This document shows positions 1,966-56,176 of a stretch of DNA of 64,000 nucleotides, in pieces. The first letter of the stretch is position 1. Each line of letters opens with the position of its first letter. A program made the position numbers and the translations under genes. The notes under the pieces are model-generated. The model was given only the letters and a program-made list of their open reading frames with translations. It had not been told where the DNA came from and searched no databases. The stretch comes from a virus, in IMG/VR virus record IMGVR_UViG_3300045988_080954, one strand, 5' to 3'.

Positions 1966-2381
1966 ATACAAGAGAATATTTAAACCAAATTCAGCGTTAT
2001 GATAGGGCAATTCATAATAAATATATAGAAATAGAACAGTTAAAAGCTCATGCAACTGGATTAAGTTCCTTTTCGTATGGCGAACGTGTACAAACATCTG
2101 GGAATAAAGACAGAACGGGTGATTTGATTGCGGAAATTGTTGATCTACAAAGGGAAATTCAAGATATCACAGATGAGTACTTAAAGAAAAAAACAGAAGT
2201 CATTAGGACAATTGATTCTGTAAGAAATCCATTACAGTACGATGTCTTATTCAAAAGATATATTGAAGGAAAATCTCTTGATATAATTGCCGATGAAGTT
2301 GGGTATTCGTATCAGCGGACAAAAGAACTTCATTTGTGTGCAATAGAAACGGTAAGAAAAATAAAAGGATTCGAATATTAA
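1962..2381 (+). CDS. sigma-70 region-4-like HTH protein (DUF1492/ArpU-type phage regulator-like)
   Basis: 139 aa with an ATGA overlap with terL. The C-terminus LFKRYIEGKSLDIIADEVGYSYQRTKELHLCAIETVRKI looks like a sigma r4 HTH. Confidence 0.55.
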   Translation: MNTREYLNQIQRYDRAIHNKYIEIEQLKAHATGLSSFSYGERVQTSGNKDRTGDLIAEIVDLQREIQDITDEYLKKKTEVIRTIDSVRNPLQYDVLFKRYIEGKSLDIIADEVGYSYQRTKELHLCAIETVRKIKGFEY

Positions 2382-2434: not shown

Positions 2435-2463
2435 AAGCACTGGATTTATTCCGGTGCTTTTTT
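2435..2463 (+). terminator. intrinsic terminator between regulator gene and portal
   Basis: GCACTGG (2437-2443) pairs with CCGGTGC (2451-2457) around a 7-nt loop, followed by a T-run at 2458-2463. Confidence 0.7.
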
Positions 2464-2489
2464 CATGCAGAAAAATAGGAGGACAGGCA

Positions 2490-3944
2490 GTGGGGAGAAA
2501 CAAAATTAACTTTGTTGACCTATGCCAAGGCGAGTTTGGCAGAAAAATTGCCTATACTGGCGTAGACCAGATTACTCCCCAGAACGTGGCACAGGTCCTT
2601 TCTGATACAATCGGAATCCATAACAGGAATAGAACCCTGATGGATTATCTTTACAGATATTACAAAGGCGATCAGCCAATTTTATATCGTGAAAAACTTG
2701 TTCGCCCAGAGGTCAACAATAAAGTTGTTGAGAATCATGCCCTTGAAACAGTCAAATTTAAGGCAGGACAGATATACGGAGAACCTATTCAGTATGTCTG
2801 CAAGAAGAAAAAAGCGAGTGAAAAAACAAACGAACAAGTTGACCGGCTTAATGATTATCTGGACGAAGCCAATGCAGACGCCAGAAATATTCAACTTGGG
2901 ATATACCAGAGTGCAGTAGGAACTGCATATAAAGCAATCCTGAGAGAGGATGAATGGACAAAGGATGGAGACTTACCGCCTTTCAGAATATTTATCCCAT
3001 CACCGCAGGATGTATATATTGTTTATTCAAGCGTTACTGGCAAACCAGTGCTTTCCGTCCAGATTTTAAAAGACGAGGACAATCAGCAGTATTACCAGTG
3101 TTATTCTTCCAGACAGTATTTCAAAATTCAAAATGGAGCGGTAACAGAATCTGGAATCAATGGTTTTGGTGGTATTCCTATCATTGAATATCCGAATAAT
3201 CACGACAGACTTTCCGACATCGAAATTGCGATTACAATGTATGATGCAATCAACAAATATCAATCTGACAGACTGAATGGGGTTGAACAGTTCGTACAAG
3301 CTCTGATGAAATTTAAGAACTGTGAGATTGACGAAGCAGAATTTGTAAAAATGATAAAACTCGGTGCTGTATCTGTAAAAGATGTCGGGAATGGAACACA
3401 ATCAGACGTTGACTTAATGACTGCTGAACTAAATCAGTCAGAAAGCCAGGTTGCAAAAGACGATATTTACAACAATATGCTGATTGTAGAAGCAATGCCG
3501 AATCGACAGGGCAATACGGGTGGAGACACAGGAAATGCAGTGTATCTGAGGAATGGTTGGGATTTTGCAGAACGAGACGCAAAATTGGTAGAAGCATTTA
3601 CGAAAGAAGCTGAAAAAGCATCTGCCAGAATTATTTTGAATATCATCCGAAAAACTTCAATGGATGTAAATATTTCAACTAGAGATTTTGATGTAAAAAT
3701 CACCAGAAACCCGACAGATAACATGCTTGTTAAAGCGCAGGCACTGGATTATCTGTTCAAAAATAAAATTCATCCGCTTATTGCGCTGATTACTTGCGGA
3801 TTATTTAGTGATCCGCAAAAAGCATACGAAATGAGCTTGCCATATCTCGGAACCATTTATCCGGAATTGGCAGACCCAGACTCAGAGCTGCAAAAAGCAC
3901 AAAATTTGCTGAATGGCTTTAACAAGGATGTGATTTCAGAATGA
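2490..3944 (+). CDS. portal protein (SPP1 gp6-like)
   Basis: About 484 aa from GTG 2490, with AGGAGG at 2477-2482 and a 7-nt spacer. The 2454 start in the ORF track would lie inside the terminator hairpin. Position after terL fits. Confidence 0.85.
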   Translation: MGRNKINFVDLCQGEFGRKIAYTGVDQITPQNVAQVLSDTIGIHNRNRTLMDYLYRYYKGDQPILYREKLVRPEVNNKVVENHALETVKFKAGQIYGEPIQYVCKKKKASEKTNEQVDRLNDYLDEANADARNIQLGIYQSAVGTAYKAILREDEWTKDGDLPPFRIFIPSPQDVYIVYSSVTGKPVLSVQILKDEDNQQYYQCYSSRQYFKIQNGAVTESGINGFGGIPIIEYPNNHDRLSDIEIAITMYDAINKYQSDRLNGVEQFVQALMKFKNCEIDEAEFVKMIKLGAVSVKDVGNGTQSDVDLMTAELNQSESQVAKDDIYNNMLIVEAMPNRQGNTGGDTGNAVYLRNGWDFAERDAKLVEAFTKEAEKASARIILNIIRKTSMDVNISTRDFDVKITRNPTDNMLVKAQALDYLFKNKIHPLIALITCGLFSDPQKAYEMSLPYLGTIYPELADPDSELQKAQNLLNGFNKDVISE

Positions 3945-5717: not shown

Positions 5718-6752
5718 ATGCCATTTAATATTTTAGAATCAATCACACAGGAAGAAAGACTTAACTTTTCTCAGGATTTCAGCGTAAAAAGACCGGGCAT
5801 TCTTGACACCATCTTCCCGGATATCAAAACCCAGTTCCTGAAAGCTGAATACTACAGACTTATGGCTGGACAGAGACTGCCAGAGGTAGCATTCGTTCAC
5901 GCTCTTGATACCGAAGCAGAAATTGGCTCCAGACCGGGATTCGAAAAAGTCCTGACTGAAAAGCTTTTTATCAAGAGAAAAATCAATCAGTCTGAGAGAT
6001 TACAGCAGGCAATTGAAAATGGTGTGCCGGATGATGAGAATTTAAAGAAGTTCGTATTTGATGATGCGGCAAACCTGTTTGAAGGCGTTGTTGCCAGAGC
6101 AAATGTTATGAAAGGGCAATTCCTCTCTACTGGCGCAGTAAAAGTCAAAGAGAACAACGTGGATATGAGCATTGATTACGGCGTTCCGTCCAGCGCAAAG
6201 GTAGAAATGACAGACTGGTCTAAACCGGATGCAGATATCATGGGCGATATCCAGAAGATGGTTGCTATCGCAGAGGATAATGGATTTGTGGTAAACAAAG
6301 CCCTGACATCACTTAAAATGATTAATTATATGAGAAACAACACTGCAATGCAGACCGCAGTTTTAGGAGCAGCTAACAAACGTCTTCTGACCAAACAGGA
6401 ACTCGCTAATCTGCTTATGCAAGAATACGGAATCACAATTGATCGTTGCGACGAGAAATTCAAATTCAGAAAAGCAGATGGTTCACTCAAAACAGGAAGA
6501 TACTTCAAAGAGGATGTATTCACTCTGTATGAAGCAGAACCGAACGGTTCATTTGGTACTGGACTCTGGGGCGTAACACCGGAGGAACTTGAATATAGAC
6601 AGTTCATTCAGGAAGAAAATCGCTCCTTCGTAACTCTGTCCATGTGGGCTACACAAGACCCAGTTGCAGTTTGGACTAAAGCATCAGGCATGTTTGTTCC
6701 AGTAGCAGCAAAAGCTAATGGTGGTATCGTAATCGGTACAAAGGGGGAATAA
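5718..6752 (+). CDS. major capsid protein
   Basis: 344 aa with a GGAGG site upstream, in the canonical position. The N-terminus ...FPDIKTQFLKAEYYRL... resembles the capsid protein E-type family. Confidence 0.8.
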   Translation: MPFNILESITQEERLNFSQDFSVKRPGILDTIFPDIKTQFLKAEYYRLMAGQRLPEVAFVHALDTEAEIGSRPGFEKVLTEKLFIKRKINQSERLQQAIENGVPDDENLKKFVFDDAANLFEGVVARANVMKGQFLSTGAVKVKENNVDMSIDYGVPSSAKVEMTDWSKPDADIMGDIQKMVAIAEDNGFVVNKALTSLKMINYMRNNTAMQTAVLGAANKRLLTKQELANLLMQEYGITIDRCDEKFKFRKADGSLKTGRYFKEDVFTLYEAEPNGSFGTGLWGVTPEELEYRQFIQEENRSFVTLSMWATQDPVAVWTKASGMFVPVAAKANGGIVIGTKGE

Positions 6753-6832
6753 ACGGGCATAGTCTTGATGAGAACAGCCAGTCACCATCTGTAGCAAGTA
6801 AACACAAGTATACAGAAAGCGAGCTGTCAAGC

Positions 6833-6937
6833 ATGACAGTGGTTCAGCTGAAACAACTCGCAAGTGACAATGGCTATGCCCTGATATCTACAAACAAGGC
6901 TGGTATTATCTCGGAAATTTTATCTCAGCAAGGGTAG
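6833..6937 (+). CDS. Rho-N/HeH-like small protein, or the C-terminal extension of the capsid protein via a -1 frameshift at 6740-6746
   Basis: MTVVQLKQLASDNGYALISTNKAGIISEILSQQG matches the helix-extended-helix pattern of Rho N-terminal domain proteins. The frame is open back to 6719 with no canonical start before 6833. Confidence 0.45.
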   Translation: MTVVQLKQLASDNGYALISTNKAGIISEILSQQG

Positions 6938-6947
6938 GTGATCTTAA

Positions 6948-7274
6948 ATGAACGAACAGCTTGTAAATGACCTGAAAGAATATCTAGCCGATGATGCGGA
7001 AACTGACGGTATGATTTCTTTGTCTGTAAAACGCGCAATTCGTTCATTCAAAAAGAAGCGCAACTATCCGTCTGGATATACAGAGGAAAAAATCAATACC
7101 GATATGGAATATTGCTATGATTGCATATTTGATCTGGCTCTCTATTTCCTTGTGAAACAGGGAGCCGAGTTCCAAGAATCACATTCTGAAAATTCAGTAA
7201 GTCGAAACTGGGAATCAGAAACGGAAATATATATCAATCATGGCGTTTTTCCATTTGCAGGAAGTTTAATTTAA
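6948..7274 (+). CDS. head-tail connector (gp6-like DNA-packaging/connector protein)
   Basis: 108 aa with N-terminal LVNDLKEYLADDAETDGMISLSVKRAI, as in gp6-like connector families. It follows the capsid gene. Confidence 0.6.
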   Translation: MNEQLVNDLKEYLADDAETDGMISLSVKRAIRSFKKKRNYPSGYTEEKINTDMEYCYDCIFDLALYFLVKQGAEFQESHSENSVSRNWESETEIYINHGVFPFAGSLI

Positions 7275-7386
7275 TAAGATGGTTGGGTCACGTGGCACAG
7301 TATTTTTGTCCTCCCGGAGTGCCGCTGGGTTGCTTATATTCAGTAGGGAAAAGCAAATGTTAAGGGAGTGAAGAAAGGAACTGGCG

Positions 7387-7698
7387 ATGGGATGTGAACA
7401 TGAATGTTTTAATGAACACCGCATAGAAGAATTAGAGAATAGTCTTCGACAGATGCAAGAGAGACAATCCGACCGCCACAAAGAGTTTTATGAGCGTATC
7501 GGGGAACTGGAAAGAAAGACAGCATTAAGTGAGAATGACTTGAACCATATCAAGTCAACTGTGGATGAGATGAATAACAATATAAAGACTCTCATGGCAG
7601 TCCCGGGAAAGCGTTACGATACAATCATTGTATGTGTTATTACATCTATTGTCAGCGCAGTTATCGGTTTTATGTTAAGCGGTATTCTTCCAGTTTGA
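7387..7698 (+). CDS. XhlA-like membrane protein (PBSX lysis-cassette family)
   Basis: 103 aa: a coiled coil, then ...MAVPGKRYDTIIVCVITSIVSAVIGFML. The PGKR(W/Y)D motif plus a C-terminal TM helix match XhlA as I recall it. Confidence 0.65.
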   Translation: MGCEHECFNEHRIEELENSLRQMQERQSDRHKEFYERIGELERKTALSENDLNHIKSTVDEMNNNIKTLMAVPGKRYDTIIVCVITSIVSAVIGFMLSGILPV

Positions 7699-7727
7699 TT
7701 CCACTTGTAAGGGAGGACGGTGGAAAT

Positions 7728-7982
7728 ATGAATTATACAGACTTTTCAGAAGATGAAAGAAAATTTTATTTAAAAGAAGCAGGCTTCGATTCCAGAGAAG
7801 AAAAACTGTTTCGATTACGGGCCTATGGCGAAAAGACACTATGGGAAGCATCTGAACTTATGGGGTATAGTCCAAGAACCATAGACCGAATTAATAAAAG
7901 AATAAAGAAGAAAATTTCTAAAGTTGCCCCGATGTACTGTCGGGGCTTTTCTTTGTATTGTGGCGAAAACGTGGCGAAATAG
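7728..7982 (+). CDS. small HTH protein (sigma region-4 / LuxR-like)
   Basis: 84 aa from ATG 7728 with GGAGG upstream. Contains ...TLWEASELMGYSPRTIDRINKRIKKKI. The last 19 codons overlap a terminator hairpin. Confidence 0.5.
   Translation: MNYTDFSEDERKFYLKEAGFDSREEKLFRLRAYGEKTLWEASELMGYSPRTIDRINKRIKKKISKVAPMYCRGFSLYCGENVAK
7926..7954 (+). terminator. intrinsic terminator
   Basis: GCCCCGA (7926-7932) pairs with TCGGGGC (7940-7946), then TTTTCTTT. Confidence 0.6.
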
Positions 7983-8137
7983 TGACGTTCAAAAACAGAG
8001 TTCCTTCCTATATAATATAATCATAGGAGAAAACACAACGATTATGTTAAGAAACCCTTACGAGGGTATATGGGAAAAGCATCGTTCCATAGATGATATG
8101 GACATGATTCTTGAATCCCGGACAGGAGGAACAGATT

Positions 8138-8635
8138 ATGGCAGGTTATCCGTATTATCCGCAACAGCCAATGATAAACAACCCATACGGACAAATACAG
8201 CCGTATCAGGACAGGCTAGCGCAATTGCAGAATAATTATCAGCAGGCAATGCCTTATGGTCAAATACAGATGCAACAGTTACAGCCGGTTCCACAATCAC
8301 CTATGCTTCAAGGACAGATGGTGGATGGAATTGATACTGTAAAGGCTAAAGATGTGGATATGTCCGGCAATCCTGTTTACTATCCAAAAACAGACGGAAC
8401 TGAAATTTACAGAAAACAGCTTCAATCCGATGGAAGGAGCAGGATTTTTGTTTACCGACTCGTAAATCCAGATGAACAGCAATCTAAGCAAGATGAAAAG
8501 CAGATTGACATTGAAGCAATGTTTAATCAGCTTCGGAATGATGTTTGTTCGGAGATTTCTGAAATAAAGAGTATGTTTCCGACACAGATGTCGGGGACAC
8601 CAGAGTCTAAGCAGAACGGAGGTAGGCAGAGATGA
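8138..8635 (+). CDS. P/Q/Y-rich protein, function unknown
   Basis: 165 aa from ATG 8138 with AGGAGGA at 8124-8130. The N-terminus is MAGYPYYPQQPMINNPYGQIQPYQ...; the C-terminal half looks globular. Confidence 0.5.
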   Translation: MAGYPYYPQQPMINNPYGQIQPYQDRLAQLQNNYQQAMPYGQIQMQQLQPVPQSPMLQGQMVDGIDTVKAKDVDMSGNPVYYPKTDGTEIYRKQLQSDGRSRIFVYRLVNPDEQQSKQDEKQIDIEAMFNQLRNDVCSEISEIKSMFPTQMSGTPESKQNGGRQR

Positions 8636-8877
8636 CATTCAATCCAAACGCCATAATGAAAAAGCAATTTGAGAAAATGATTTCTCAGAGGTTCGGAAGT
8701 GTTGACAACATGATGAACGATATGAGTAAATTTGCAGGAAATAATCCAACATTGAAGAATGCGTTGGATTTATACAAAAAAGGTGATACGGACCAGTTAC
8801 ATCAAATACAGCAAAATGTATTTAATGAAAAGCACTTATCACCAGATGGAATTATCCAGAAATTCCTTGGATTATAA
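8632..8877 (+). CDS. hypothetical protein
   Basis: 81 aa with an ATGA overlap with the upstream gene and GGAGG upstream. No family recognised. Confidence 0.45.
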   Translation: MTFNPNAIMKKQFEKMISQRFGSVDNMMNDMSKFAGNNPTLKNALDLYKKGDTDQLHQIQQNVFNEKHLSPDGIIQKFLGL

Positions 8878-8973
8878 CACTTCCCCACAATTGGGTGATT
8901 AAAAATCGCTACAATTCGGGACGACAGCCGCGGATGTCTCCTATTGTAAATAAAATTTAAGGAGACTAAAAAC

Positions 8974-9783
8974 ATGATGAATGGTTCAAATTACAGTCTT
9001 AGTGACATTGCTGCCGCTACAGGCTCTAATAATCGCGCCAATGATATGTGGGGCGGTGATGGCTTTTCACTTATCTGGCTCGTCCTGATCTTTGCCATCT
9101 TTGGATGGGGAGGTTTTGGCGGCTGGGGCGGCGGCTTCGGCGGTAATGGTGGAAACGGTGCGAACGGTGCCGGATTCCAGGGATGGGCTACCCGTGCTGA
9201 TATCAACGAGGGGTTTGCTCTTAATGATATCCAGAACGGCATCAGAGGCATTCAGCAAGGTATTTGTGATAGCACATATGCTCTTAACAATACCATGCAA
9301 AGTGGCTTCAATGGCGTGAACGTTGGAATGCTTCAGGGCTTCAACGGCGTTCAGCAGGCAATTAACGCTGATACAGTGGCTAATATGCAGAACACCAATA
9401 CATTACAGTCTCAGTTAGCAAACTGTTGCTGTGAAACAAGAGAGGCTATCCAGGGCATCAACTACAACATGGCTACCAACACTTGTGCTCTCCAGAACAC
9501 AATGAACAATAACACCAGAGACCTTCTGGAAAACCAGAATAGCAATACAAGAGCAATCCTTGATTTCCTGACTCAGGATAAGATTGCAACATTACAGGCA
9601 GAAAATACTGATCTGAAACGTGCTGCATCTCAGGATCGCCAGTCCGCATTGCTTACAACTGCTATGGCTTCGCAGACTCAGCAGTTAATCAATGCAATTA
9701 ATCCGGCAGCCATCCCGGCATACGTTGTTCCTAATCCGAATACCTATTACGGCGGATGCGGATGCAACAGTGGATGCTGCTAA
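8974..9783 (+). CDS. membrane-anchored Gly-rich, N/Q-rich, Cys-tailed protein
   Basis: 269 aa with AAGGAG upstream. It has a TM helix FSLIWLVLIFAIFGW, a GGFGGWGGGFGGNGGNGANGAG tract, a CCC triplet and a C-terminal YYGGCGCNSGCC. Confidence 0.6.
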   Translation: MMNGSNYSLSDIAAATGSNNRANDMWGGDGFSLIWLVLIFAIFGWGGFGGWGGGFGGNGGNGANGAGFQGWATRADINEGFALNDIQNGIRGIQQGICDSTYALNNTMQSGFNGVNVGMLQGFNGVQQAINADTVANMQNTNTLQSQLANCCCETREAIQGINYNMATNTCALQNTMNNNTRDLLENQNSNTRAILDFLTQDKIATLQAENTDLKRAASQDRQSALLTTAMASQTQQLINAINPAAIPAYVVPNPNTYYGGCGCNSGCC

Positions 9784-9813
9784 GTAACTCACCCTTAGAG
9801 GTTGACTAATTCT

Positions 9814-9845
9814 AAGAGGTGGGTTACGGCTCACCTCTTATTTTG
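9814..9845 (+). terminator. intrinsic terminator
   Basis: AAGAGGTG (9814-9821) pairs with CACCTCTT (9832-9839), then ATTTTG. Confidence 0.6.
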
Positions 9846-9861
9846 ATTGAGAGGTAAAAAT

Positions 9862-10287
9862 ATGAGTTGTAAGAATGTTTGTAAACTTTGCAGTCATCTT
9901 GTAATCAGTCAAGCTGTTGCGTTTACAGGTGGTAATCTTGTAATCACACTCCCAGCAGGCAGTTACAACAATGGAGAGAAATATTGTATTGTTGTTGCAC
10001 AAAGTATACCGGAAGCCACCACAATTACCGCCCCGGTAATGATTCAAATAGGAACAGGAACAACTTTGTATCCGCTAGAGAATCGTTGCTGTGCACAGGT
10101 TACGGCTTGCGGAATAAGAACCAGAACGAAGTACGCAACCAGAGTAGCTACAAGTGCAACTGGTGGAGTATTCAAGATGTTAGGAAATCCAGCTTGTAGT
10201 CCGAGTAACAATTTAACAGCAATTAATGGTGCAGCCCCAACGACAGACACACCTGTTACACAGGCTGCCAGAAAGGGGGCAATGTAA
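9862..10287 (+). CDS. Cys-rich beta-rich small protein, family not recognised
   Basis: 141 aa from ATG 9862. It has MSCKNVCKLCSH at the N-terminus, then NRCCAQVTACG and NPACS (8 Cys by my count). Confidence 0.55.
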   Translation: MSCKNVCKLCSHLVISQAVAFTGGNLVITLPAGSYNNGEKYCIVVAQSIPEATTITAPVMIQIGTGTTLYPLENRCCAQVTACGIRTRTKYATRVATSATGGVFKMLGNPACSPSNNLTAINGAAPTTDTPVTQAARKGAM

Positions 10288-10919
10288 TGCATAAAGTTGC
10301 AATGGAAATGGGAAAATGGGCTATGGAGAAAGCTAAAGCACATGGCTTTGATACTCTCAACGCTCAAGACTGGGACGATTTGAAAGACTGCATGGAAGCT
10401 GTAAAGTGTGCGATTTGTGCAGATAAGGATTACAGAATCGTAGAAGCTATGGACGAATGCGAGCAGGAAGAGAAATATCTTGGACGTATGGGATATGACA
10501 GATATCGTTATTCCAATGGCAGATTTGCCCCAAAAGGCAGAGGAAGCCGCATGGGATATATTCCTTATCTTCACGCACAGGATGATGACTGGATGAATGA
10601 ATATCTGAATAATCCAGAATTTGAACGCAATATGTACCGCATGGGATATCACCCAGAATATTCGGACAGGAATATGGGGAATGATGGCATGAATCGTCAG
10701 CAATCCAGATATGGTGAAACCTACGACAGATACAGCGAGAATCGCAGACATTACCATGATTCCAAAGACGCTGAGTCCAAGAGAAAAATGGATGATTCCA
10801 TGAAAGAGTATACAGAAGATATCATCCGCAATATGAAAGAAATGTGGGATGATGCAGACGCATCAATCAGACAGCAGATGAAAACTGACTTGACACGTTT
10901 TATACAGCAGATGAATTGA
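10287..10919 (+). CDS. Tyr/Arg/Met/Asp-rich protein with three RMGY repeats
   Basis: 210 aa with a start overlapping the upstream stop. Contains GRMGYDRYRY, SRMGYIPY and YRMGYHPEY, and an N-terminal 4-Cys segment. Confidence 0.55.
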   Translation: MHKVAMEMGKWAMEKAKAHGFDTLNAQDWDDLKDCMEAVKCAICADKDYRIVEAMDECEQEEKYLGRMGYDRYRYSNGRFAPKGRGSRMGYIPYLHAQDDDWMNEYLNNPEFERNMYRMGYHPEYSDRNMGNDGMNRQQSRYGETYDRYSENRRHYHDSKDAESKRKMDDSMKEYTEDIIRNMKEMWDDADASIRQQMKTDLTRFIQQMN

Positions 10920-10935
10920 ATATGAAATGAATTTT

Positions 10936-10968
10936 GCCCTTGTTACAGGAATGTAGCAGGGGCTTTTT
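10936..10968 (+). terminator. intrinsic terminator
   Basis: GCCCTTG (10936-10942) pairs with CAGGGGC (10957-10963, one G-U), then TTTTT. Confidence 0.55.
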
Positions 10969-10987
10969 GGTTATGGAGGTACATAAT

Positions 10988-11149
10988 ATGTCGAGAAAAA
11001 AAGCGGAAGTCAAAATTAAAATGATTTGTGAGAAATGCGGAAAACCACAGAAACCAAGTGCTGACAAATCAACAACTAATTGGAATGTATATGACTGTCA
11101 TGAAAAATGTGAATGCGGTGGAAAATTCGTAATGAAATTCGAGGATTGA
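10988..11149 (+). CDS. zinc-ribbon-like small protein
   Basis: 53 aa from ATG 10988 with GGAGG upstream. Contains CEKCG...CHEKCECGG. Confidence 0.45.
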   Translation: MSRKKAEVKIKMICEKCGKPQKPSADKSTTNWNVYDCHEKCECGGKFVMKFED

Positions 11150-11151
11150 TT

Positions 11152-11502
11152 ATGGAAAATTTGACTGTAAATATTTTAGGAACCGAGTACAAAATATATT
11201 TCAGGAATGAAAAAGACGACGATTTACTTGATGGAAAAGGCAGAGATGGATACACGGATATGTCCGCGCACGAAATTATAGTGTGTAACAAAAAAGATGA
11301 TTGTGAATTAAGAGATTACGAAAATTGGAAGAAAAACATTCTACGTCATGAAATTGTTCATGCTTTTTTATTTGAAAGTGGACTTGATTCTTCGTCTGCC
11401 AATTTTTATGGAGCATGGGCTACGAACGAAGAAATGGTTGATTGGTTTGCAATTCAATCTCCAAAGATTTTTAAAGTATTCCAAGAACTTGATTTAATTT
11501 GA
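11152..11502 (+). CDS. HExxH metallopeptidase-like protein (ImmA/IrrE- or SprT-like)
   Basis: 116 aa containing ...ILRHEIVHAFLFESG. Confidence 0.5.
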   Translation: MENLTVNILGTEYKIYFRNEKDDDLLDGKGRDGYTDMSAHEIIVCNKKDDCELRDYENWKKNILRHEIVHAFLFESGLDSSSANFYGAWATNEEMVDWFAIQSPKIFKVFQELDLI

Positions 11503-11520
11503 AAAGGATGGTGATAAACC

Positions 11521-11907
11521 ATGCTAAGACAATTTTATATGAACGGAGACCTATGGAGAGTGCAGTTTGTATCTCCGCACGACAGCGTGTTAATTGACCG
11601 TACAGGCAATAGAACGCTTGGAGTATCGGATTATTCAACCCACGTTATTTCAATCGCAAATAACTTGTATGGAGAACTTCTGAACCGTGTATTTATTCAT
11701 GAGTTAGGGCATTGTGTGATGTTCAGTTATGGTCTATTACCAGAACTTCATCGTATGGTTAAGAAACGGTATTGGGTGGACGCGGAGGAATTTGTATGTA
11801 ATATTCTGGCAGACTATGGACAGTTTGTTATTGGCACGGCCAGAGATATCTTAGGAAACCAGTTCACATATGTGGCTCCTATCGGGGCAGAAAGGATGAT
11901 TGCATAG
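11521..11907 (+). CDS. second HExxH metallopeptidase-like protein
   Basis: 128 aa containing ...VFIHELGHCVMFSYG. It is in tandem with the previous gene. Confidence 0.5.
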   Translation: MLRQFYMNGDLWRVQFVSPHDSVLIDRTGNRTLGVSDYSTHVISIANNLYGELLNRVFIHELGHCVMFSYGLLPELHRMVKKRYWVDAEEFVCNILADYGQFVIGTARDILGNQFTYVAPIGAERMIA

Positions 11908-12150
11908 ATGGCAAAAGCAGAAAACACAATTATTTTTGATGGCATTCAGTACAATCCCGGTGATGAATTGCCGGATTTAGGTAGTTGGGTATGTACAGAT
12001 GCAAGAGGTATGGTTCGTGATTACGAGGGACTTTCAAAAGACGTATCAAAGCTCCCGCATTATGTAGAGAGCGGTTCTTCGGCGCTGTGCCTTGATACTT
12101 CTGAATTATACGAATATCACAAACCTACCGATACATGGTACAAACTGTAA
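11908..12150 (+). CDS. hypothetical protein
   Basis: 80 aa, starting immediately after the upstream stop, with GAAAGGA upstream. Confidence 0.4.
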   Translation: MAKAENTIIFDGIQYNPGDELPDLGSWVCTDARGMVRDYEGLSKDVSKLPHYVESGSSALCLDTSELYEYHKPTDTWYKL

Positions 12151-12163
12151 AGGAGAAGCGCAT

Positions 12164-13462
12164 ATGGCATTAACAGCAAAGAAAGTATATGCAATATTAA
12201 AACGCCAGATTTCCGATATGGAAGCAAAATTAAATAGCCCTGTAAGATACAGAGGTACAGTTGCGACTGCTGATTTGCTTCCATTAAATCCAGATATTGG
12301 CGATATGTACAATATCGAGTCTAAGTCGGTCTACGGCGAAGCAGGAATGAATGTGGCATGGAACGGCGTAGTTTGGGACACTATGGGCGCTCCAATTGAT
12401 ATGTCACTGTATCTCACAAAAGAAGAAGCAGAGACGGTAATACAAAGATTAGTTACGGAATATTTTGAAAAGAATCCAGTCAAGCCTGGAGCCACGACAG
12501 AACAGGCACAGCAGATCGAGCAGAACAAGACAGACATTGCTTCACTGAAAACGGAAACTGGTTCACTGAAGGAAGATATATCCACCAAAATCACCAAATT
12601 CTATGCAAGTTCACAAGGTGAAACTCATATTACTGATTCTGACAATGGCAAGATTCAAGATATGATGATATATGGCAAATCATCACAGGATGGAACACCA
12701 ACGCCAGAGAATCCAGTTGAGATTAAAAGCGTGGTGAATCCAACGGTGAAGGTGTCAAACGAAGATGGAACACAATTTAAGACCGTCACTCTCCCATACA
12801 CATTAAATGCAATCCCTGTAAGTTCAGGTGGTAACGTCACAATCGACGGACAGCAGTATATTGCGGATTATGTGGATGTGGAACGTGGGAAACGAGTACA
12901 GAGAATTATTAAGTATAAAATAACAGGTGATGAAAACATTTATGAACACGCAAGTGGTTGGATATATTGCGATACCGATTTAAAACTGGTTTCTCAAATA
13001 TGTGCAACTAATATTGCGAAAACAATAACTGATCAATATATTTTATCGGGCAATTATATCAGATCAGGAGCAACTGGTTTCTATTTTACACATAATGATA
13101 TATTCACTGATGTTAATGCGTTTAAAAACTATGTGAAAAATAACGATGTGTATGTTTATACTGCATTATCAACACCCGAAGAAATCGACCTCACCACCGA
13201 AGAAATTGCCGCATTCAAAGCACTTACAACATATTACCCGACTACAAATATCAGCGTCAATTCCGAACAGCTTGACGGATATACAATATTCAATTATCCA
13301 ATTTCAATGGAGAACGGTTGGAACTATGTAAAACAGCAGATAGGCGATACGAGGGATTATATCTATGATATGGACGCACGTACTCAGGATACTGATTTAC
13401 AGGCGGCAGAAGCCTACGTTAACAGCGAATACGCAGTAGCACTTACAGAATTGGAGGTATGA
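12164..13462 (+). CDS. tail-fibre / receptor-binding-like protein
   Basis: 432 aa from ATG 12164. The N-terminal YRGTVATADLLPLNPDIGDMYNIE...NVAWNGVVWD motif is one I associate with Firmicute phage fibre proteins. It is followed by an XkdX-like gene. Confidence 0.55.
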   Translation: MALTAKKVYAILKRQISDMEAKLNSPVRYRGTVATADLLPLNPDIGDMYNIESKSVYGEAGMNVAWNGVVWDTMGAPIDMSLYLTKEEAETVIQRLVTEYFEKNPVKPGATTEQAQQIEQNKTDIASLKTETGSLKEDISTKITKFYASSQGETHITDSDNGKIQDMMIYGKSSQDGTPTPENPVEIKSVVNPTVKVSNEDGTQFKTVTLPYTLNAIPVSSGGNVTIDGQQYIADYVDVERGKRVQRIIKYKITGDENIYEHASGWIYCDTDLKLVSQICATNIAKTITDQYILSGNYIRSGATGFYFTHNDIFTDVNAFKNYVKNNDVYVYTALSTPEEIDLTTEEIAAFKALTTYYPTTNISVNSEQLDGYTIFNYPISMENGWNYVKQQIGDTRDYIYDMDARTQDTDLQAAEAYVNSEYAVALTELEV

Positions 13463-13464
13463 TT

Positions 13465-13605
13465 ATGTTATACAGAACATTATTAAAACTTAAAAAAAGA
13501 AACGGACTGACAGACGATTTAAAAAATAAGATTGATATTTTCTTCGCAACGGGCAGGATTACCGAGGAACAGTATAATGAGCTGATGGATGCTTTAGTTA
13601 ATTAA
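13465..13605 (+). CDS. XkdX-like small protein
   Basis: 46 aa, MLYRTLLKLKKRNGLTDDLKNKIDIFFATGRITEEQYNELMDALVN. The ...G.IT.EQY..L pattern and the position after a fibre gene match PBSX. Confidence 0.5.
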   Translation: MLYRTLLKLKKRNGLTDDLKNKIDIFFATGRITEEQYNELMDALVN

Positions 13606-13675
13606 AAATCTCTCATAAATTCGCTAAAATATCTATTCAGATAGAGCGAACAGTGCTATAATCACTATAACAGAA

Positions 13676-13743
13676 CACAAAAAGAGGAGCTGGACTCCCG
13701 TCTACCAAACAAAAAGTCCAACTCCAAGCACCACAAAGGGTAC
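13676..13743 (-). ncRNA. candidate cis-antisense small RNA opposite the recombinase 5' leader
   Basis: Minus-strand promoter TTCACA (13778-13773), 17 nt, TATAAT (13755-13750), with TG at -15/-14. The hairpin 13725-13715/13696-13686 pairs best on the minus RNA (G-U) and is followed by TCTTTTTGTG. Confidence 0.4.
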
Positions 13744-13799
13744 GGGTATATTATAGCACAGTACTCTCCCTTTGTGAACCCAAAAGGAGGGTATTTTTT

Positions 13800-14795
13800 A
13801 TGAGAGAAAAATTCGTGAATGGGTTCATGACAAATCTGTATGAAGAAATTCCGGAAGAATATCTTGAAACAGTCAGAAACAAACTGGCGTTGTATGTAAA
13901 TGATTTTGATATCAGTCAAAGAGAAACAGCAGTTGTAAAGTATACTGGATATTTGCCAGATTTTTACAAAACTTACATTGTAAGCAGGAAGATCGAGGGT
14001 TTGAGTAAAAAGACTCTCGAACTCTACAATCTTTATCTGGATGATTTCTTTTTCACAGTCAATAAAAAAGCTGAAGATATTACCGCAAATGACATTCGTG
14101 TATATCTGTATAATGCTCAGGAGAGCAGAGGGTTGAGTAATCGAACGCTTGATAGTAGAAGAACTGCCATACACGCTTTCTTCGAGTGGGCTGCAAACGA
14201 AGGATATATAGGCAAGAACCCGTGCAGAGTTATCAAAAATATCAAGTATGAACGTGTAGAGAAGAAACCTCTGACAGATATGGAACTGGAAAGAATCAGA
14301 CAGGTATGCGAAACGGTACGCGAAAAGGCAATGATTGAATTCTTATACAGTACAGGAGCCAGAGTGACAGAAGCATGCGCTGTCAAGAAACAAGATGTGG
14401 ATTTTCAAAATGGCGAAGTAATTGTTTTAGGAAAAGGAAATAAGCATAGAAAAGTATATCTAAATGCTCGCAGCAAACTTCTTTTAGGACAGTACCTTGC
14501 ATTCAGAAATGATGATTCGGAATATCTTTTTGTAAGTGAAAGAAAACCCCACAACGTATTAAAAAAAGAAGCAATTGAAAGAATTGTACGAATAATCGGT
14601 GAGCGGTCAGAACTGGACAGGCCTCTGACACCGCATCTATTTAGGCATACTCTTGCGACTCTTATGCTTCAAAGAGGTACGCCGATTACTGAGGTGCAGA
14701 AGATTCTTGGACATGTCAACATTAACACGACAATGATCTATGCAAAGGTATCTGATGAAGATGTAAAAGTGTCTCATATGAAATATGCAATATAA
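13800..14795 (+). CDS. tyrosine recombinase (XerC/XerD-phage integrase family)
   Basis: 331 aa with AGGAGG upstream. Contains ...STGARVTEA..., ...HLFRHTLAT..., ...LGHVNINTTMIYAKV (R, H-x-x-R, H and Y catalytic signature). Confidence 0.9.
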   Translation: MREKFVNGFMTNLYEEIPEEYLETVRNKLALYVNDFDISQRETAVVKYTGYLPDFYKTYIVSRKIEGLSKKTLELYNLYLDDFFFTVNKKAEDITANDIRVYLYNAQESRGLSNRTLDSRRTAIHAFFEWAANEGYIGKNPCRVIKNIKYERVEKKPLTDMELERIRQVCETVREKAMIEFLYSTGARVTEACAVKKQDVDFQNGEVIVLGKGNKHRKVYLNARSKLLLGQYLAFRNDDSEYLFVSERKPHNVLKKEAIERIVRIIGERSELDRPLTPHLFRHTLATLMLQRGTPITEVQKILGHVNINTTMIYAKVSDEDVKVSHMKYAI

Positions 14796-14818
14796 GATTT
14801 TTGAAGGGAGAAATCGCC

Positions 14819-15217
14819 ATGAGAGGATTAAAACGCCAAAAACAGATAGTATATTGGTCAAGGGCAACTGAAGACCTTGACGGGATAGACACAATCAAAA
14901 CGTACCAAAAGCCAGAATTGCATCACCTCTCCGTGTCTGCGACCGCCGGAACGCCAGAGGAATTATCCGCCGGTTATATCCCGGACTACGACAGATACAT
15001 CACGAACTTTGACCGTGACTTCAAGCCGCAGACCGCCGATGTATTCTGGATAGACTGCAAGCCGGAACTGAATGAAGCAGGCGAACTTATCTTAGGCGAA
15101 GATGGAGAGCCTACAGTCCCACCAGATTACCGTCTAAAAAAGATTCTTGATACCCAGAAAGGGAATGTGGCACGATATGGTATCAAGTATATAGGAGATG
15201 GTTCAGATGGCGAATAA
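14819..15217 (+). CDS. head-tail joining module protein (family not assigned)
   Basis: 132 aa from ATG 14819 with GAAGGGAG upstream. It is the first ORF after the island, in the position expected for a head-closure/adaptor gene. Confidence 0.4.
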   Translation: MRGLKRQKQIVYWSRATEDLDGIDTIKTYQKPELHHLSVSATAGTPEELSAGYIPDYDRYITNFDRDFKPQTADVFWIDCKPELNEAGELILGEDGEPTVPPDYRLKKILDTQKGNVARYGIKYIGDGSDGE

Positions 15218-15725
15218 GACTATCAAAATGGAATTGTCGCATAAATCTATACAAGACACGATAAAACAGCTCAGAGCGTATCAGAAGTCACTTGCAAGTA
15301 AGAATGAGGAATTTGTCCGCAGGCTAGCAGAACTTGGAATCCCGGTCATAGATGAAAACATAGCATTGGCACAAGGCGATTCTGACAAAAACCATAACAC
15401 CTATATCAGAATCAATAACTTTGGCGGCTATTCTCAGGCGACGCTTGTGTGCGAAGGCTCTGACCTCCTGTTCATTGAGTTCGGTTCGGGTATTTCGTAT
15501 AACACTCCGGCAGGAACTAGCCCGCATCCTAAGGGGCAAGATTTTGGTTACACAATCGGTTCATACGGACAAGGGAATGGAAAGAATGAATCGTGGGTTT
15601 ATTATTCCGATTCTGGCGAATGGGTACGTTCTTACGGTACTGAAGCCACCATGCCAGTTTATAAGGCAAGCGTGGAGATTATGCAAAACATCAGAAAAAT
15701 TGCAAATGAAGTGTTTGGTTCCTAA
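15207..15725 (+). CDS. neck/tail-completion module protein (possibly HK97 gp10-like)
   Basis: 172 aa from ATG 15207; the 15198 ATG abuts the AGGAG site. The call is positional. Confidence 0.4.
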   Translation: MANKTIKMELSHKSIQDTIKQLRAYQKSLASKNEEFVRRLAELGIPVIDENIALAQGDSDKNHNTYIRINNFGGYSQATLVCEGSDLLFIEFGSGISYNTPAGTSPHPKGQDFGYTIGSYGQGNGKNESWVYYSDSGEWVRSYGTEATMPVYKASVEIMQNIRKIANEVFGS

Positions 15726-16275: not shown

Positions 16276-16488
16276 ATGAGTAAAGATAAATTACAATGGC
16301 TGAAAGCTGCGGGAATCAGAGCTGTTAAGACAATTGCTCAGACAGCAGTTGCGACAATCGGAACCGCAACAGTCCTTGGAAGCGTTGACTGGAAGATGGT
16401 CGTATCCGCGTCCGTTCTTTCCGGCGTTTTATCCTTGCTTACATCTGTAGCAGGGCTTCCAGAACTGAAAACAGGCACAGATGAATAG
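16276..16488 (+). CDS. holin-like membrane protein
   Basis: 70 aa, ...AAGIRAVKTIAQTAVATIGTATVLGSVDWKMVVSASVLSGVLSLLTSVAGLPE. It has two hydrophobic helices and a pattern seen in Firmicute phage holin annotations. Confidence 0.55.
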   Translation: MSKDKLQWLKAAGIRAVKTIAQTAVATIGTATVLGSVDWKMVVSASVLSGVLSLLTSVAGLPELKTGTDE

Positions 16489-18054: not shown

Positions 18055-21000
18055 ATGCCTGACAACACAATAGATAGCCTTGCGATAGAGGTCAGCAGTA
18101 ACGTATCAAATGCAAGCAAATCCATTGATGATTTATGCAATAAACTGAATCGTCTGAGTAGCCGTATGTCTGAGAGCATCAAGTATCTTAGAGACTTTTC
18201 AGCTTCCGTAGGCACGGCCAATTCTGCTGTTCAAGCACTTAAATTAGACAGGCTTGATTTATCAACGATAAACAGTCAATTGCAACAGTTTGTTCAGTCT
18301 ATGAGTGTGCTCGGTAGCCTGAACTTGAGAAACAACGGATTAAACTCATTCGTAAATGCAATCCGCAGACTGAACGAAACATTAAACTCCACAGGTGATG
18401 TGTCTGGAAAGATTCAGAACATGATTTCCGAATTATCTGGTCTTGGCAGTATTCCAGATGTATCAAACAACGTGAACAGGTTTATTTCTTCACTGGCAAG
18501 ATTGGCGAATGCCGGCAGTTCTATTGATGCAGTTGTATCAAAACTTCCAAAACTTGGTGAAGAACTTAGAAAAATCATAGTTTCATTCTCTGGAATAGGC
18601 AATATTTCTCAGCCAATTAATACTTTTGTTCAGTCAATATCTCAGTTGGCAAATGCAGGAGACAAAACCGGAAAGACAGCAACTCAGCTTAATGATCTGG
18701 CAAATAGCTTAAAATCATTCTTCCAGACGATGAGTACCGCTCCTAGAATCAGTAGCAGTACAATTCAAATGACTCAGGCTATTGCTCAGCTGGCAAATTC
18801 TGGGGCGAATGCTGGTAGAGCAGCAAGGTCTACTGCAAGTGCATTTTCAGGATTGGGGCAGGGTGCGGCCACTTCGACAGGAAAGGTCAGAAAACTTGCA
18901 AACGCCGTTGGAAGTGTAGGAAGCAAGGCAAAGAAAAGTTTGCCTAGCATCATGTCTCTGGTGGCAAAATTCTGGACGTTGAAATTTGTTGTTGAAAAAT
19001 TTGGAAGCGCAATTGAAAGTTCCATGAATTTTCTCGAAGATTACAACTACTTTCAAGCGGCGTTTCGCCAGGTAGCAGATAAAGCGGGTAAAACTTGGTC
19101 AGAAGCGGGCTATGATTCCGCAGAAGCATATGCAAATTCATTCAGCCAGAGAGCCAGAGAACTTACATCCAAAATGTCTGGATTCGATGTTTCCGATAAT
19201 GGCATTTTGTCGGCAAATAAAACCGGTAAGTCACTTGGCATGGATCCGTCCATGCTTTTAAATTATCAAGGCCAGTTTGCACAGTTATCATCATCTATGG
19301 GAACAACTTCTGAACAGGCTTTAAAGCTGTCGAATGCGTTAACTATGATCGGTGCAGACCTTGCATCTGTTAAAAATCTTGATTTTAATACAGTTTACGA
19401 AAACTTATCCTCTGGATTGGTAGGAATGAGCCGTGCCGTAGATAAATATGGTGCGAACATTCGTGTGGCAAACTTACAGCAATACGCTTCGAATCTTGGA
19501 CTGCAAACAGCTGTATCAAAGATGGATCAGGCAAGCAAAGCAATGCTGAGGACAATAGTGATACTGGATTCTACACGGTACGCATGGGCGGATATGGCAA
19601 ATACGATAAATATGCCAGCCAACCAGTTACGTATACTTCGTGCAAATTTAGTGTCCTGTGCTAGAGCATTAGGGAACATCTTTATGCCAGTCGTTGCAGC
19701 AGTATTGCCGTACATTAATGGCCTTGTAATTGCATTCCAGAGACTCCTGACATACATTGGTTCACTTCTTGGAGTTGATACCAAAATTGGAAATATGTTC
19801 GGTTCTATCGGAAGCGGAAGTGAAAATCTCTCAAACGCACTTGATACTATAGACGATTCTAGTCTTTCAGATGTTGATGATACTACAAAAGATACCAGTG
19901 ACAATCTGAAAAATGCGACTAAAAACGCAAAGAAGCTCAAACAGTTCCTTGCATCCTATGATGAATTAGAGGTTATGAGCAAAGACGACAGTTCTCTGTC
20001 AAACCTTGCAAATTCTAAGATTAAAACGCCTGCTCTTGACACATCTGCCCTTGACGCAGGAATTCTCAATGATGCACTGGATAAACTTTTGAACGAATAC
20101 CAGAAGAAATGGGATGCCGCCTACAATTCCATGGAAAATAAGGCCATGGCATTCGCAAATAAAGTTACAGACACATTTAAGAAACTTGCAAAAGTCGCAG
20201 AGCCTACCACAAAAGCGCTGAAAAATCTTTGGAACAATGGATTGAAACAGCTCAGAGATTTCACATGGACAGCATTAAAAGATTTCTGGAATCATTTTTT
20301 AGTTCCGCTTGGCAAGTGGACACTTGGGGAAAAAGGATTACCACGACTAATCAATGCTTTTAATGATTTTCTCGTGAAAATTAACTGGGATAAAATCAAC
20401 GCTTCCCTTGTGCAGTTATGGGATGTGTTAGAGCCATTTGCTGAGAATGTCGGAACAGGATTACTTGATTTCTTTGATGATTTCTTTGATAAGGCGGCAG
20501 ATGGAGTTAATAAACTTCCTGATCTGATTGACAGGTTCAAAGAGTTTATCGCAACATTTTCGCCAGAACAGGCACAGTCTATTGGCTATTTCCTCGGACA
20601 ACTCCTGACAGCTTTTGCAGCATTTAAAGGACTTACATGGTTCGGTGGTATTTTCGGCAAAGAAGGAGTGATAGGCAAAGGAATCACCATGTTAGCAGCG
20701 CATCCATATGCTTCGATAGTGGCAGGACTTGGTCTTACTGTTGCCGCACTTGATAAATTCGGAGTGATTGATGTTGATTGGGACGGGTTATGGACAAGAA
20801 TCGGGAATCTTAAAGACGTAATTGTGAATTTCATCAAAAATATTAATTGGGATTCGTTAATAAAAACAATCGGTGATGTATGGGATGTATTCCAGCCATT
20901 TGCTGAGGGATTCGCAGATGGATTTATCAGCTTTTTCGATATAATGCTGAACGATATCGGCGCCCCCCTGATTAACGCATTAGTAAGCGCCTTAGATGCT

Positions 21001-28574: not shown

Positions 28575-28598
28575 AAGATGGATAAAAAACAGCGATCA

Positions 28599-28627
28599 TT
28601 GATTTTTCGCCTCAAATACGCTATAAT
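28599..28627 (+). promoter_or_regulatory. near-consensus sigma-A promoter TTGATT-17-TATAAT
   Basis: -35 at 28599-28604, -10 at 28622-28627, with exactly 17 nt between them. Confidence 0.5.
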
Positions 28628-28633
28628 AAAACC

Positions 28634-28959: not shown

Positions 28960-28983
28960 CAATTTTCATTTACATAATATCTC

Positions 28984-29030: not shown

Positions 29031-29061
29031 GAATAAGAATAAGAAATAGAATAAGAATATA

Positions 29062-56153: not shown

Positions 56154-56176
56154 CTTAGTTGGAAGGGAGAAAGTAT

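Follow-up and report, generated by a model that had tools for sequence, protein, structure and literature searches.

This analysis concerns positions 7275-14818 of IMG/VR virus record IMGVR_UViG_3300045988_080954, a recombinase-bearing interval of a 64,000-nt stretch of DNA that is called the window below. The interval lies between a head-tail connector gene (6948-7274) and the next structural open reading frame (ORF), which starts with an ATG at 14819; both coordinates had been given by a first-pass annotation of this DNA and were confirmed. That annotation counted 17 same-strand ORFs here and took them for a mobile element nested in the head-tail joining genes. All plausible genes were indeed on the plus strand, but their number was 14 between 7274 and 14819, or 15 when a small overlapping ORF at ~8045 is included. 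From left to right they encode an XhlA-like protein (xhlA), a small sigma-70 region-4-like helix-turn-helix (HTH) protein (sig), a P/Q/Y-rich protein (PQY), an 81-aa protein (o81), three proteins of biased composition (gly269, cys141 and o210), a zinc-ribbon-like protein (znr), two HExxH proteins (hexxh1 and hexxh2), an adaptor-like 80-aa protein (o80), a fibre (fib), a 48-aa protein and a tyrosine recombinase, the stop codon of which ends at 14795 and thus leaves 23 nt to the ATG at 14819, as had been noted (Table 1).

Much of the earlier description was borne out at the level of single genes. The stretch is accessory, and a canonical head-tail joining region would not contain it; terminator-like hairpins were predicted after sig, gly269 and o210, in agreement with the statement that the interval has terminators of its own. 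The P/Q/Y-rich protein is present and matches phrog_21718, the 52-aa ORF carries the zinc-ribbon motif CEKC, and the HExxH motifs read HEIVH and HELGH; hexxh1 and hexxh2 both matched the N-terminal part of phrog_1233 (E 5.7e-26 and 1.9e-10). The XerC/D-type tyrosine recombinase was likewise recovered (PF00589, E 2e-40; NF040815, 235 bits with a cut-off of 220): its best PDB match was the XerC-like protein 4a8e (E 6e-40), its best family matches were XerA, XerC and XerD, and the putative catalytic residues R188, K215, H279, R282, H305 and Y314, as placed by motif position and not by alignment to a solved recombinase, are all present. Other labels held in part only. The XhlA-like protein matched phrog_937 (‘hemolysin’, E 1.3e-12) but no Pfam XhlA model at E <= 0.1, and the sigma-r4-like HTH protein gave matches to PF04545 (E 1.6e-3) and TIGR02937 (E 2e-7) that were both weak and under the curated cut-offs. 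The 48-aa ORF, which had been called XkdX-like, matched only phrog_2310 (a family with no function assigned) and no Pfam XkdX model; of the proposed PBSX-type tail-end/lysis block there remained the resemblance of the fibre, small ORF and recombinase trio to a tail-end block, but not the XkdX identity. Homologous recombinases do sit directly after the last tail-fibre gene and before the holin and endolysin genes in TPELB_ph1, phiCp-D and many IMG/VR phages. No matches were found in Rfam over 6.5-17 kb or, for the accessory proteins, in PADLOC and NCBIfam, and PDB sequence searches with hexxh1, fib, the connector and the two presumed neck proteins (neck1 and neck2) returned nothing useful.

Table 1. 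Features of the connector-neck interval, followed by its flanks and the wider genome (positions in the window; +, plus strand; -, minus strand).
Feature	Position	Strand	Basis or remark
XhlA-like coiled-coil protein, C-terminal membrane anchor	7387-7698	+	phrog_937
sig, small sigma-70 region-4-like HTH protein	7725-7982	+	weak family matches; terminator-like hairpin 7926-7946
PQY-o81-gly269 cassette	7988-9840	+	promoter, ORFs, terminator
PQY, P/Q/Y-rich protein	8138-8635	+	phrog_21718
o81, 81-aa ORF	8632-8877	+	
gly269, Gly/Cys-rich 269-aa membrane protein with hydrophobic segment	8974-9783	+	phrog_16490
cys141, Cys-rich, 141 aa	9862-10287	+	
o210, Tyr/Arg-rich, 210 aa	10287-10919	+	
znr, zinc-ribbon-like CxxC 52-aa ORF	from 10991	+	CEKC
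hexxh1	11113-11502	+	HExxH; N-terminal part of phrog_1233
hexxh2	11521-11907	+	HExxH; N-terminal part of phrog_1233
o80, 80-aa adaptor-like ORF	11908-12150	+	
fib, 432-aa fibre	12164-13462	+	
48-aa ORF	13459-13605	+	phrog_2310
Recombinase leader	13606-13799	+	folding, conservation
Predicted antisense unit	13680-13778	-	promoter and terminator predictions
Xer/Rin-like tyrosine recombinase, 331 aa	13800-14795	+	PF00589, NF040815, PDB 4a8e
Head-tail connector, gp6-like (left flank, outside the block), 108 aa	6948-7274	+	via homologues
Presumed head-closure and neck genes neck1, neck2 (right flank)	14819-15217, 15198-15725	+	position alone
Large terminase	223-1965		
Portal	2454-3944		
Major capsid protein	5718-6752		
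Tape measure	18055-23031		
Distal tail protein			1290 aa
Endolysin	29255-30721		
RecT	40598-41548		
Large serine recombinase	56159-57892		phrog_95, E 2e-115

The genome is siphophage-like and temperate, comes from the human gut and lies for the most part inside the window. Close relatives number more than 170 in IMG/VR, on contigs of ~75-79 kb, and related prophage genes are present in genomes of Lachnospira, Ruminococcus and Eubacterium; the phage is a ~77-kb temperate siphophage of Lachnospiraceae, and the large serine recombinase is probably its real integrase. Every protein of the window was compared by tblastn with 160 loci, among which 52 distinct relatives were counted. The genes xhlA, sig, PQY, o81, gly269, cys141, o210, hexxh2 and o80 were found at the same position in 48-52 of the 52 relatives, mostly at >90% identity (xhlA in all 52 and in MT835477). 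MT835477, a phage with capsid and portal proteins only 25% identical to those of the window, has in order a gp6-like connector, xhlA, sig, PQY, o81, gly269, cys141, o210, hexxh2, a diversity-generating retroelement (DGR) cassette, o80, a short fibre, neck1 and neck2. Within the conserved part, znr (10 of 52 relatives) and hexxh1 (16 of 52, six of these 16 being a ~54%-identical allele without znr) form an indel among relatives.

The right third of the block, on the other hand, is hypervariable, with a hotspot at 12.15-14.8 kb among close relatives. In the 52 relatives the fibre could be aligned only in part, the 48-aa ORF occurred in 25, and the recombinase was full-length in 30, truncated in eight and absent from 14 while the rest of the block was unchanged. 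The distance from connector to neck ranged from 1.5 kb to >12 kb, and most of this variation fell between o80 and the neck gene (1.85-8.5 kb). Four shortened relatives turned out to be deletions with four different breakpoint pairs (8654-14819, 7905-13918, ~9845-13171 and ~9020-12780 in window coordinates), and no common or precise empty site was found among them. The compact extreme is Dulem virus 39: behind its connector come ~700 bp that contain three small genes, including one for a Hol44 holin, and among its neck-region genes there is a homologue of hexxh1 with 67% identity.

A search for direct or inverted repeats flanking the interval (6800-15300) found only short, imperfect pairs that were judged no better than chance. 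The first-pass annotation had itself seen no convincing flanking repeats, and the ATAAGAT and GCACAGTA copies that it listed are present, but repeats of 7-8 nt are trivial. Alignment with related phages, which it had proposed as a check, found the same block at the same position for most of 7387-12150, one of the outcomes that the annotation had listed as refuting its own reading. Thus, as the block is conserved and syntenic in the 52 relatives and MT835477, as its deletions are heterogeneous and as repeats are lacking, the block is inherited and is not a recent insertion with defined ends. We read the connector-neck interval not as one element but as an ‘accessory arm’ of the late region, which is mosaic, inherited and made up of three layers (accessory cassettes, a fibre locus and a leader-recombinase unit), and put the probability of this reading at about 0.6.

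Within the accessory layer (7.39-12.15 kb), PQY-o81-gly269 and cys141-o210 look like stand-alone moron-type cassettes. A sigma-70-like promoter (TTCAAA-17-TATAAT, 7988-8016) was predicted after the sig terminator, and consensus or folding predictions placed terminators after gly269 (9813-9840, with a 12-bp stem) and after o210 (10936-10963); the total of promoter-like matches in the region was not above shuffled expectation. The gene products belong to large families: gly269 has >8000 homologues and cys141 ~5080, the latter with conserved cysteines, and all the named ones are called ‘hypothetical’. In 12 of 49 relatives o81-gly269 was replaced by a 42%-identical allele. In divergent phages sig accompanies the PQY/gly269 cassette, and the pair of o210 and HExxH genes recurs in MT835477, in a Lachnospira prophage and in a family of 60-kb phages. 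In this 60-kb family the order is sig-like HTH gene, 416-aa integrase, attP, small ORF, PQY-like gene, small ORF, gly269 (63% identity), AntA, o210-like gene, hexxh2-like gene and DUF4417, with the sig-like HTH gene directly upstream of the integrase and overlapping it, and the stretch from sig to DUF4417 sits between replication genes and MazG/DUF3310 genes. In an integrated 60-kb phage on a 344-kb bacterial contig, attL directly adjoins a host tRNA gene and is ~330 nt from the start of the PQY-gly269 cassette.

Thus the sig/PQY/gly269/o210/HExxH set moves between contexts, and in the 60-kb phages it stands at the classic position of lysogenic-conversion genes. Because the same set recurs in other contexts, next to att sites, and because 12 of 49 relatives carry replaced alleles, we read the cassettes as putative morons; their genes would not depend on virion assembly for expression and would probably be active in the lysogen. 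To judge from the membrane segment and the Gly/Cys/Tyr-rich composition, the products would most likely have their role in the cell envelope. An identity of cys141 as an Ena-like (DUF3992) subunit of spore appendages was considered and dropped, as it had no Pfam support and the AlphaFold2 (AF2) model of cys141 was unreliable (predicted local distance difference test (pLDDT) score of 46) and unfit for searching. The 60-kb family also yielded a pair of loci, L260 (8200-9120) and L261 (8700-9120), that represent its prophage and phage forms and share the core GGGGTTCAAATCCCTTTTCCGCTACTA; the family integrates at the 3’ end of a tRNA gene, and inside attL the gly269 cassette comes first. In the window a DUF4417-like gene, of the kind that closes the sig/PQY/gly269/o210/HExxH stretch in the 60-kb phages, follows the large serine recombinase (together 56159-58565, plus strand).

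The 12.15-14.8 kb segment is a host-recognition hotspot. The N-terminal 130 aa of fib were modelled by AF2 at a pLDDT of 77.6, and the core of this model matched the N-termini of proteins named tail fibre, head fibre or collagen-repeat protein in BFVD (E 2e-9 to 1e-4); a homologue search with the fib N-terminus returned mostly short or truncated proteins and little on full-length alleles. The alleles of relatives are 332-854 aa long and end in tips of very different kinds, namely Metallophos, Peptidase_M14 carboxypeptidase, GDSL esterase, DUF6273 (lectin-like) and pectate-lyase-like domains, while one short allele matched Pfam tail-fibre repeats and a head fibre. Every allele diverges right after the residues SLKED, which are encoded by TCRCTRAAGGAAGAT (12563-12577), and the neighbours on both sides are mosaic; in one family (C2) o80 is fused to a fibre domain. 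A tandem 21-nt repeat at 12527-12568 (plus strand) encodes two SLK-type heptad-like units just upstream of SLKED, of which relatives have one to several. In some relatives the hotspot also contains another fibre gene, accompanied by a reverse transcriptase (PF00078), and one of them (L104) has a 102-nt pair of variable repeat (VR) and template repeat (TR) with mismatches almost all at template adenines; neither a reverse transcriptase nor a TR/VR pair was found in the window.

The fibre thus comprises a constant N-terminal anchor and shaft, which reach to SLKED, and an enzymatic or binding tip that is swapped among relatives through recombination at this junction and at the right flank; in some relatives a DGR diversifies the tip as well. 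Such a layer would set host or adhesion specificity. The hotspots also contain other DNA: an insertion sequence (IS)-type DDE transposase (DUF772, E 5e-13; a 507-aa ORF on the minus strand) is inserted in that of L129, and an 86-nt non-coding element occurs in those of L121 (3337-3422), L083, L095, L107, L092 and L123, in L121 inverted relative to the others.

The recombinase at the right end of the hotspot comes with a leader that turned out to be a signature of a wider group. A pattern scan for the leader core hit at least 119 IMG/VR contigs, and 80 loci were examined. In all 75 of the 80 loci that have downstream DNA, the leader lies ~70 nt upstream of a recombinase 42-97% identical to that of the window, and ~34 of the leader-recombinase loci are in other phage families. 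The order there is a large distal tail protein (Tal), in some cases a 68-aa ORF, a ~150-aa fibre, an inverted spare tip, leader, recombinase and endolysin. The fibre has a constant 68-aa N-terminus and a variable C-terminus, and in at least 14 loci an inverted partial cassette lies on the minus strand. Two of these contigs, L300 (IMGVR_UViG_3300045988_089581) and L314 (IMGVR_UViG_3300045988_070467), have colinear flanks of 99.3-99.6% identity and a 742-bp centre that is 99.6% identical but inverted. The inversion swaps the C-terminal 80 aa of the 150-aa fibre, with crossover at ...GCACTAAATAGTGA| and |TCACTATAGAG..., and the recombinase of the pair is 47% identical to that of the window. L300 and L314 are therefore exact inversion isomers of one phage, and represent a fibre switch operated by a tyrosine recombinase. 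Two cultured Clostridia phages, TPELB_ph1 (Terrisporobacter) and phiCp-D (C. perfringens), have 38%-identical recombinases in the position between fibre and lysis genes. A scan of one genome per species found no close homologue of the recombinase (best 33% identity).

Leader and recombinase form a portable unit, and the enzyme would be one of the Rin-like tyrosine DNA invertases, a family by which alternative fibre C-termini are flipped in sister phages. Where the enzyme is intact in the relatives, it is under strong purifying selection (median dN/dS, the ratio of nonsynonymous to synonymous substitution rates, of 0.065 over 263 pairs with dS 0.4-1.0). Candidate sites for it in the window were tried and rejected: TCTATTCAGATAGA (13632), considered as a core site, is present in a single copy in the region, and for TCACTATAAC, which lies just after the -10 box and resembles the sister crossover site, the equivalent position in L300 is not the site. 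No second copy of the leader, of the downstream spacer or of the SLKED motif was found elsewhere in the window, and a search of 23-31 kb, where the distal tail genes lie, turned up no invertible segment. In the window phage the recombinase may act in trans, or possibly on a site that was not recognised.

The leader itself is structured and conserved. The 195 nt upstream of the recombinase had a fold z-score of -5.4 against shuffled controls, and leader identity was 82-88% at the nucleotide level where recombinases were 47% identical in amino acids. An extended -10 box (TGCTATAAT, 13654-13662) is followed by hairpin P1 (13687-13726), in which 6 of 9 pairs showed compensatory double changes among 13 distinct sequences. 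Two mutually exclusive structures were also predicted: an antiterminator, which pairs CACAAAGGG with CCCUUUGUG (the arms can also be given as CACAAAGGG/CCCTTTGTG), and a terminator, the hairpin of which buries the ribosome-binding site (RBS) and runs into a U-tract ending at the recombinase ATG. A similar RBS-containing terminator hairpin lies just before the recombinase ATG in phiCp-D. On the minus strand (13778-13750), TTCACA-17-TATAAT with an upstream TG agrees with the promoter consensus at 11 of 12 positions and was the best promoter-like match in a 10-kb scan; base changes notwithstanding, every leader variant retains the TGnTATAAT box. The predicted antisense transcript would be ~65-70 nt long and end at a terminator-like hairpin (13699-13685) followed by a T-run, and its 5’ tail would be complementary to the 5’ arm of the antiterminator.

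From these features the leader is predicted to be an antisense attenuator, so far undescribed, in which a terminator driven by a counter-transcript, as in pT181 and pIP501, would keep recombinase expression off. A further candidate, an invertible promoter switch formed by the inverted repeat 13644-13662/13750-13768, was rejected: the left arm is missing in relatives that carry an AbrB-like gene, and both arms can be explained as extended -10 boxes that face each other. This AbrB/MazE-like ORF (63 aa; phrog_2329, E 1.3e-16; L084 among others) lies directly upstream of the leader and replaces the leader’s own promoter in 24 of 40 relatives with an intact recombinase; one protein cluster, P0245, has it joined in frame with a truncated fibre.

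Several known systems resemble parts of this locus. In the Rin shufflon of Bifidobacterium prophages, a tyrosine-family DNA invertase acts on a receptor-binding protein gene (Mavrich et al. 2018, PMC6109161), and the switch of the sister phages is of this kind, reported once before. The window shares with Rin a tyrosine recombinase directly downstream of a fibre gene with constant N-terminus and exchangeable C-termini (a likeness of arrangement), and the sister phages with the same leader-recombinase unit add an inverted spare C-terminal cassette, short crossover sites and inversion isomers. Unlike Rin, however, the window has neither an inverted cassette nor a pair of crossover sites; the sister switch is a simple flip of one spare cassette and no multi-segment shufflon; the host phylum differs; and a structured leader with a predicted antisense RNA does not appear in the available portions of the Rin description (PMC6109161). 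The Gin, Cin, Pin and Min systems (Mu, P1, e14 and p15B) also place an invertase beside fibre genes and switch C-terminal host-range determinants, but their enzymes are serine recombinases with a Fis-dependent enhancer, whereas that found here is a tyrosine (Xer-like) enzyme. As in rep attenuation of pT181, pIP501 and pAMbeta1, the leader would combine a convergent promoter, a short terminated antisense RNA and a choice between an antiterminator and an RBS-overlapping terminator, here all predicted from sequence; there is no sequence homology with those plasmids, and the gene controlled would be a recombinase and not a replication initiator.

The cassettes resemble the morons of HK97 and lambda in being short sets with a predicted terminator (and, for PQY, a promoter) between essential late genes, in their mosaicism and in their att-adjacent position in the 60-kb family, but they are unusually conserved and travel together as a multi-gene set with small HTH and HExxH proteins, and their expression in the lysogen is putative. 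Those relatives that have a reverse transcriptase, an adenine-differing TR/VR pair and a lectin-like DUF6273 target in the same hotspot recall the Mtd-type DGR of BPP-1, whereas the window has none of the reverse transcriptase or TR/VR pair. Finally, the Xer-like Tyrovirus gp50 is encoded between the neck genes and the tape measure, and an attP has been proposed immediately behind it (PMC9703825). Tyroviruses, Psychrobacillus phage Perkons, the Lactococcus 949 group and the window have in common that a Firmicutes phage with other recombinases for lysogeny carries an Xer-like tyrosine recombinase co-oriented among its virion genes; in the window, on the other hand, no attP-like site was found, the linkage is with fibre genes, and inversion is seen at sister loci.

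Other explanations of the interval were weighed against the accessory-arm reading. The proposal of the first-pass annotation, a nested mobile or cargo element (a satellite or integrative island) that spans the whole 7.5 kb (7275-14818) and is moved by its own XerC/D-type recombinase as integrase, has in its favour the place of this gene at the very right edge, the lack of most of the block in the compact Dulem virus 39 and the occurrence of block parts in other genomic contexts. It now appears extremely improbable: no flanking repeats above chance were found, the block is syntenic in nearly all relatives and even in a phage whose head module differs, the deletions among relatives do not share their breakpoints, and the recombinase is gained and lost independently of the block and forms with its leader a separate portable unit that elsewhere stands beside fibre genes. 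A quite different possibility is that the genes at 7.39-12.15 kb are not lysogenic-conversion cargo but ordinary late genes for decoration, neck or collar, assembly or lysis. They are co-oriented within the late operon, >90% conserved across relatives and linked in MT835477 with neck and tail genes rather than with head genes; holin-type genes are also found in the region, both here (16276-16488) and in Dulem virus 39, where a HExxH homologue lies between neck genes. We nevertheless consider such roles quite unlikely for a set that is non-structural and att-adjacent in the 60-kb phages, has promoter-like and terminator-like sites of its own, shows replacement of its o81-gly269 allele and is mostly deleted in some relatives; a membrane segment and Gly/Cys/Tyr-rich low complexity are also atypical of neck proteins.

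The recombinase, for its part, could be an Xer-type housekeeping enzyme, either a resolvase of multimers or concatemers or a second integrase, that is next to a fibre gene by accident; such a role has been suggested for Tyrovirus gp50 (PMC9703825). This would fit its best family matches (XerA, XerC and XerD), the unexplained Xer-like genes in structural modules of Tyroviruses, Perkons and the Lactococcus 949 group (PMC9703825), a ParM gene in phiCp-D that suggests a plasmid-like lifestyle, strong purifying selection where no local inversion substrate is seen, and perhaps the counter-transcript control, which would be typical of copy-number-sensing plasmid functions. However, a large serine integrase is already present in the window; ~40% of otherwise intact relatives lack the recombinase or have a truncated copy; neither close to the gene nor in the rest of the window was a dif- or att-like palindrome pair found, and species-representative genomes showed no close homologue at a prophage boundary; and in sister phages the same leader-recombinase unit is tied to inverting fibre cassettes. 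A housekeeping role is thus an unlikely though not negligible alternative. Still further from the preferred reading, the fibre locus might be an integron-like platform, on which the antisense-controlled recombinase would capture and exchange tip cassettes of enzymatic, lectin-like or DGR-bearing kinds at TCRCTRAAGGAAGAT (SLKED) between co-resident phages or prophages. This would account for one sharp junction common to dozens of unrelated tips, for the many deletion fusions of fibre and recombinase in metagenomes and for purifying selection on the recombinase without a local inverted partner, and the SLKED junction motif does resemble the crossover site of the sister-phage switch (CACTAAATAGTGA); we regard it as a very unlikely scheme.

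Several observations weigh against the accessory-arm reading itself: i) in the window no inverted cassette, no crossover-like motif and no second copy of any candidate site was found; ii) in the hotspots of 71 relatives no inverted segment >86 nt and no inversion isomer was found, in consensus assemblies, which cannot show minority orientations; iii) the invertase role would be extrapolated to the window from recombinases 42-67% identical, and the strong purifying selection acts on an enzyme without a visible substrate; iv) Pfam, PHROGs, NCBIfam, PADLOC and PDB gave no function for gly269, cys141, o210, PQY and the HExxH proteins; v) the cassette genes lie inside the late operon and are highly conserved, with which a virion or assembly role is compatible; and vi) the promoters, the terminators and the antisense RNA are all predicted, from consensus matches or from folding.

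Outside the interval, the gp6-like identity of the connector comes from its homologues. PF05135 (cut-off 21.2 bits) was passed by a 42%-identical homologue in Dulem virus 39 (PP511791) and by the positional equivalent in MT835477 (22.1 and 23.6 bits respectively), while the connector protein of the window had no direct match. On the right flank neck1 and neck2 are syntenic in all relatives and in MT835477; the ‘head-closure/neck’ label that the annotation had given to 14819-15217 is positional, as neck1 had no family, PHROG or PDB match and neck2 no family or PDB match. Further along, between neck/tail-completion-like genes and the tail tube gene, there is an r1t-type holin gene (16276-16488, plus strand; PF16945, E 1.9e-13; phrog_443), far from the endolysin gene (29255-30721); the Hol44 holin of Dulem virus 39 likewise stands between connector and neck genes. 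A sigma/ArpU-like transcription regulator of 139 aa (1962-2381, plus strand; phrog_36, E 1.5e-18) lies between large terminase and portal and is a second HTH regulator within the structural operon. Between capsid and connector a 34-aa ORF (MTVVQLKQLASDNGYALISTNKAGIISEILSQQG, 6833-6937, plus strand) resembles, by eye, an SAP/Rho-N-type helix-extension-helix motif. The ~680 nt from the gene for a 402-aa tail-associated protein to the endolysin gene (28575-29254) contain no convincing ORF, and it is here that G+C reaches its minimum for the window (0.32 in the bin of 28-29 kb).

Taken together, the region combines features of known kinds: a Rin-like invertase, morons and a modular fibre, to which relatives add DGRs. 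What sets the arrangement apart is its position at the head-neck junction and an invertase with a predicted antisense attenuator and without a visible substrate. The phage group is abundant in human gut metagenomes, as seen from its near relatives in IMG/VR and from thousands of homologues of the accessory proteins, and the locus concentrates three routes to a change in binding: modular swapping of tips, DGR mutagenesis (in relatives) and a tyrosine-recombinase flip (in sister phages). The antisense attenuator, if true, would be a compact and portable control unit for a site-specific recombinase, of interest for host-range biology and as a genetic tool. The sig/PQY/gly269/cys141/o210/HExxH genes, which travel together, form a large family of accessory genes of gut phages that is entirely uncharacterised and occupies positions typical of lysogenic conversion. 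Moreover, Xer-like recombinases in the structural modules of Firmicutes phages have been a puzzle to annotators, and for at least some of these enzymes the link to fibre switching offers a testable explanation.

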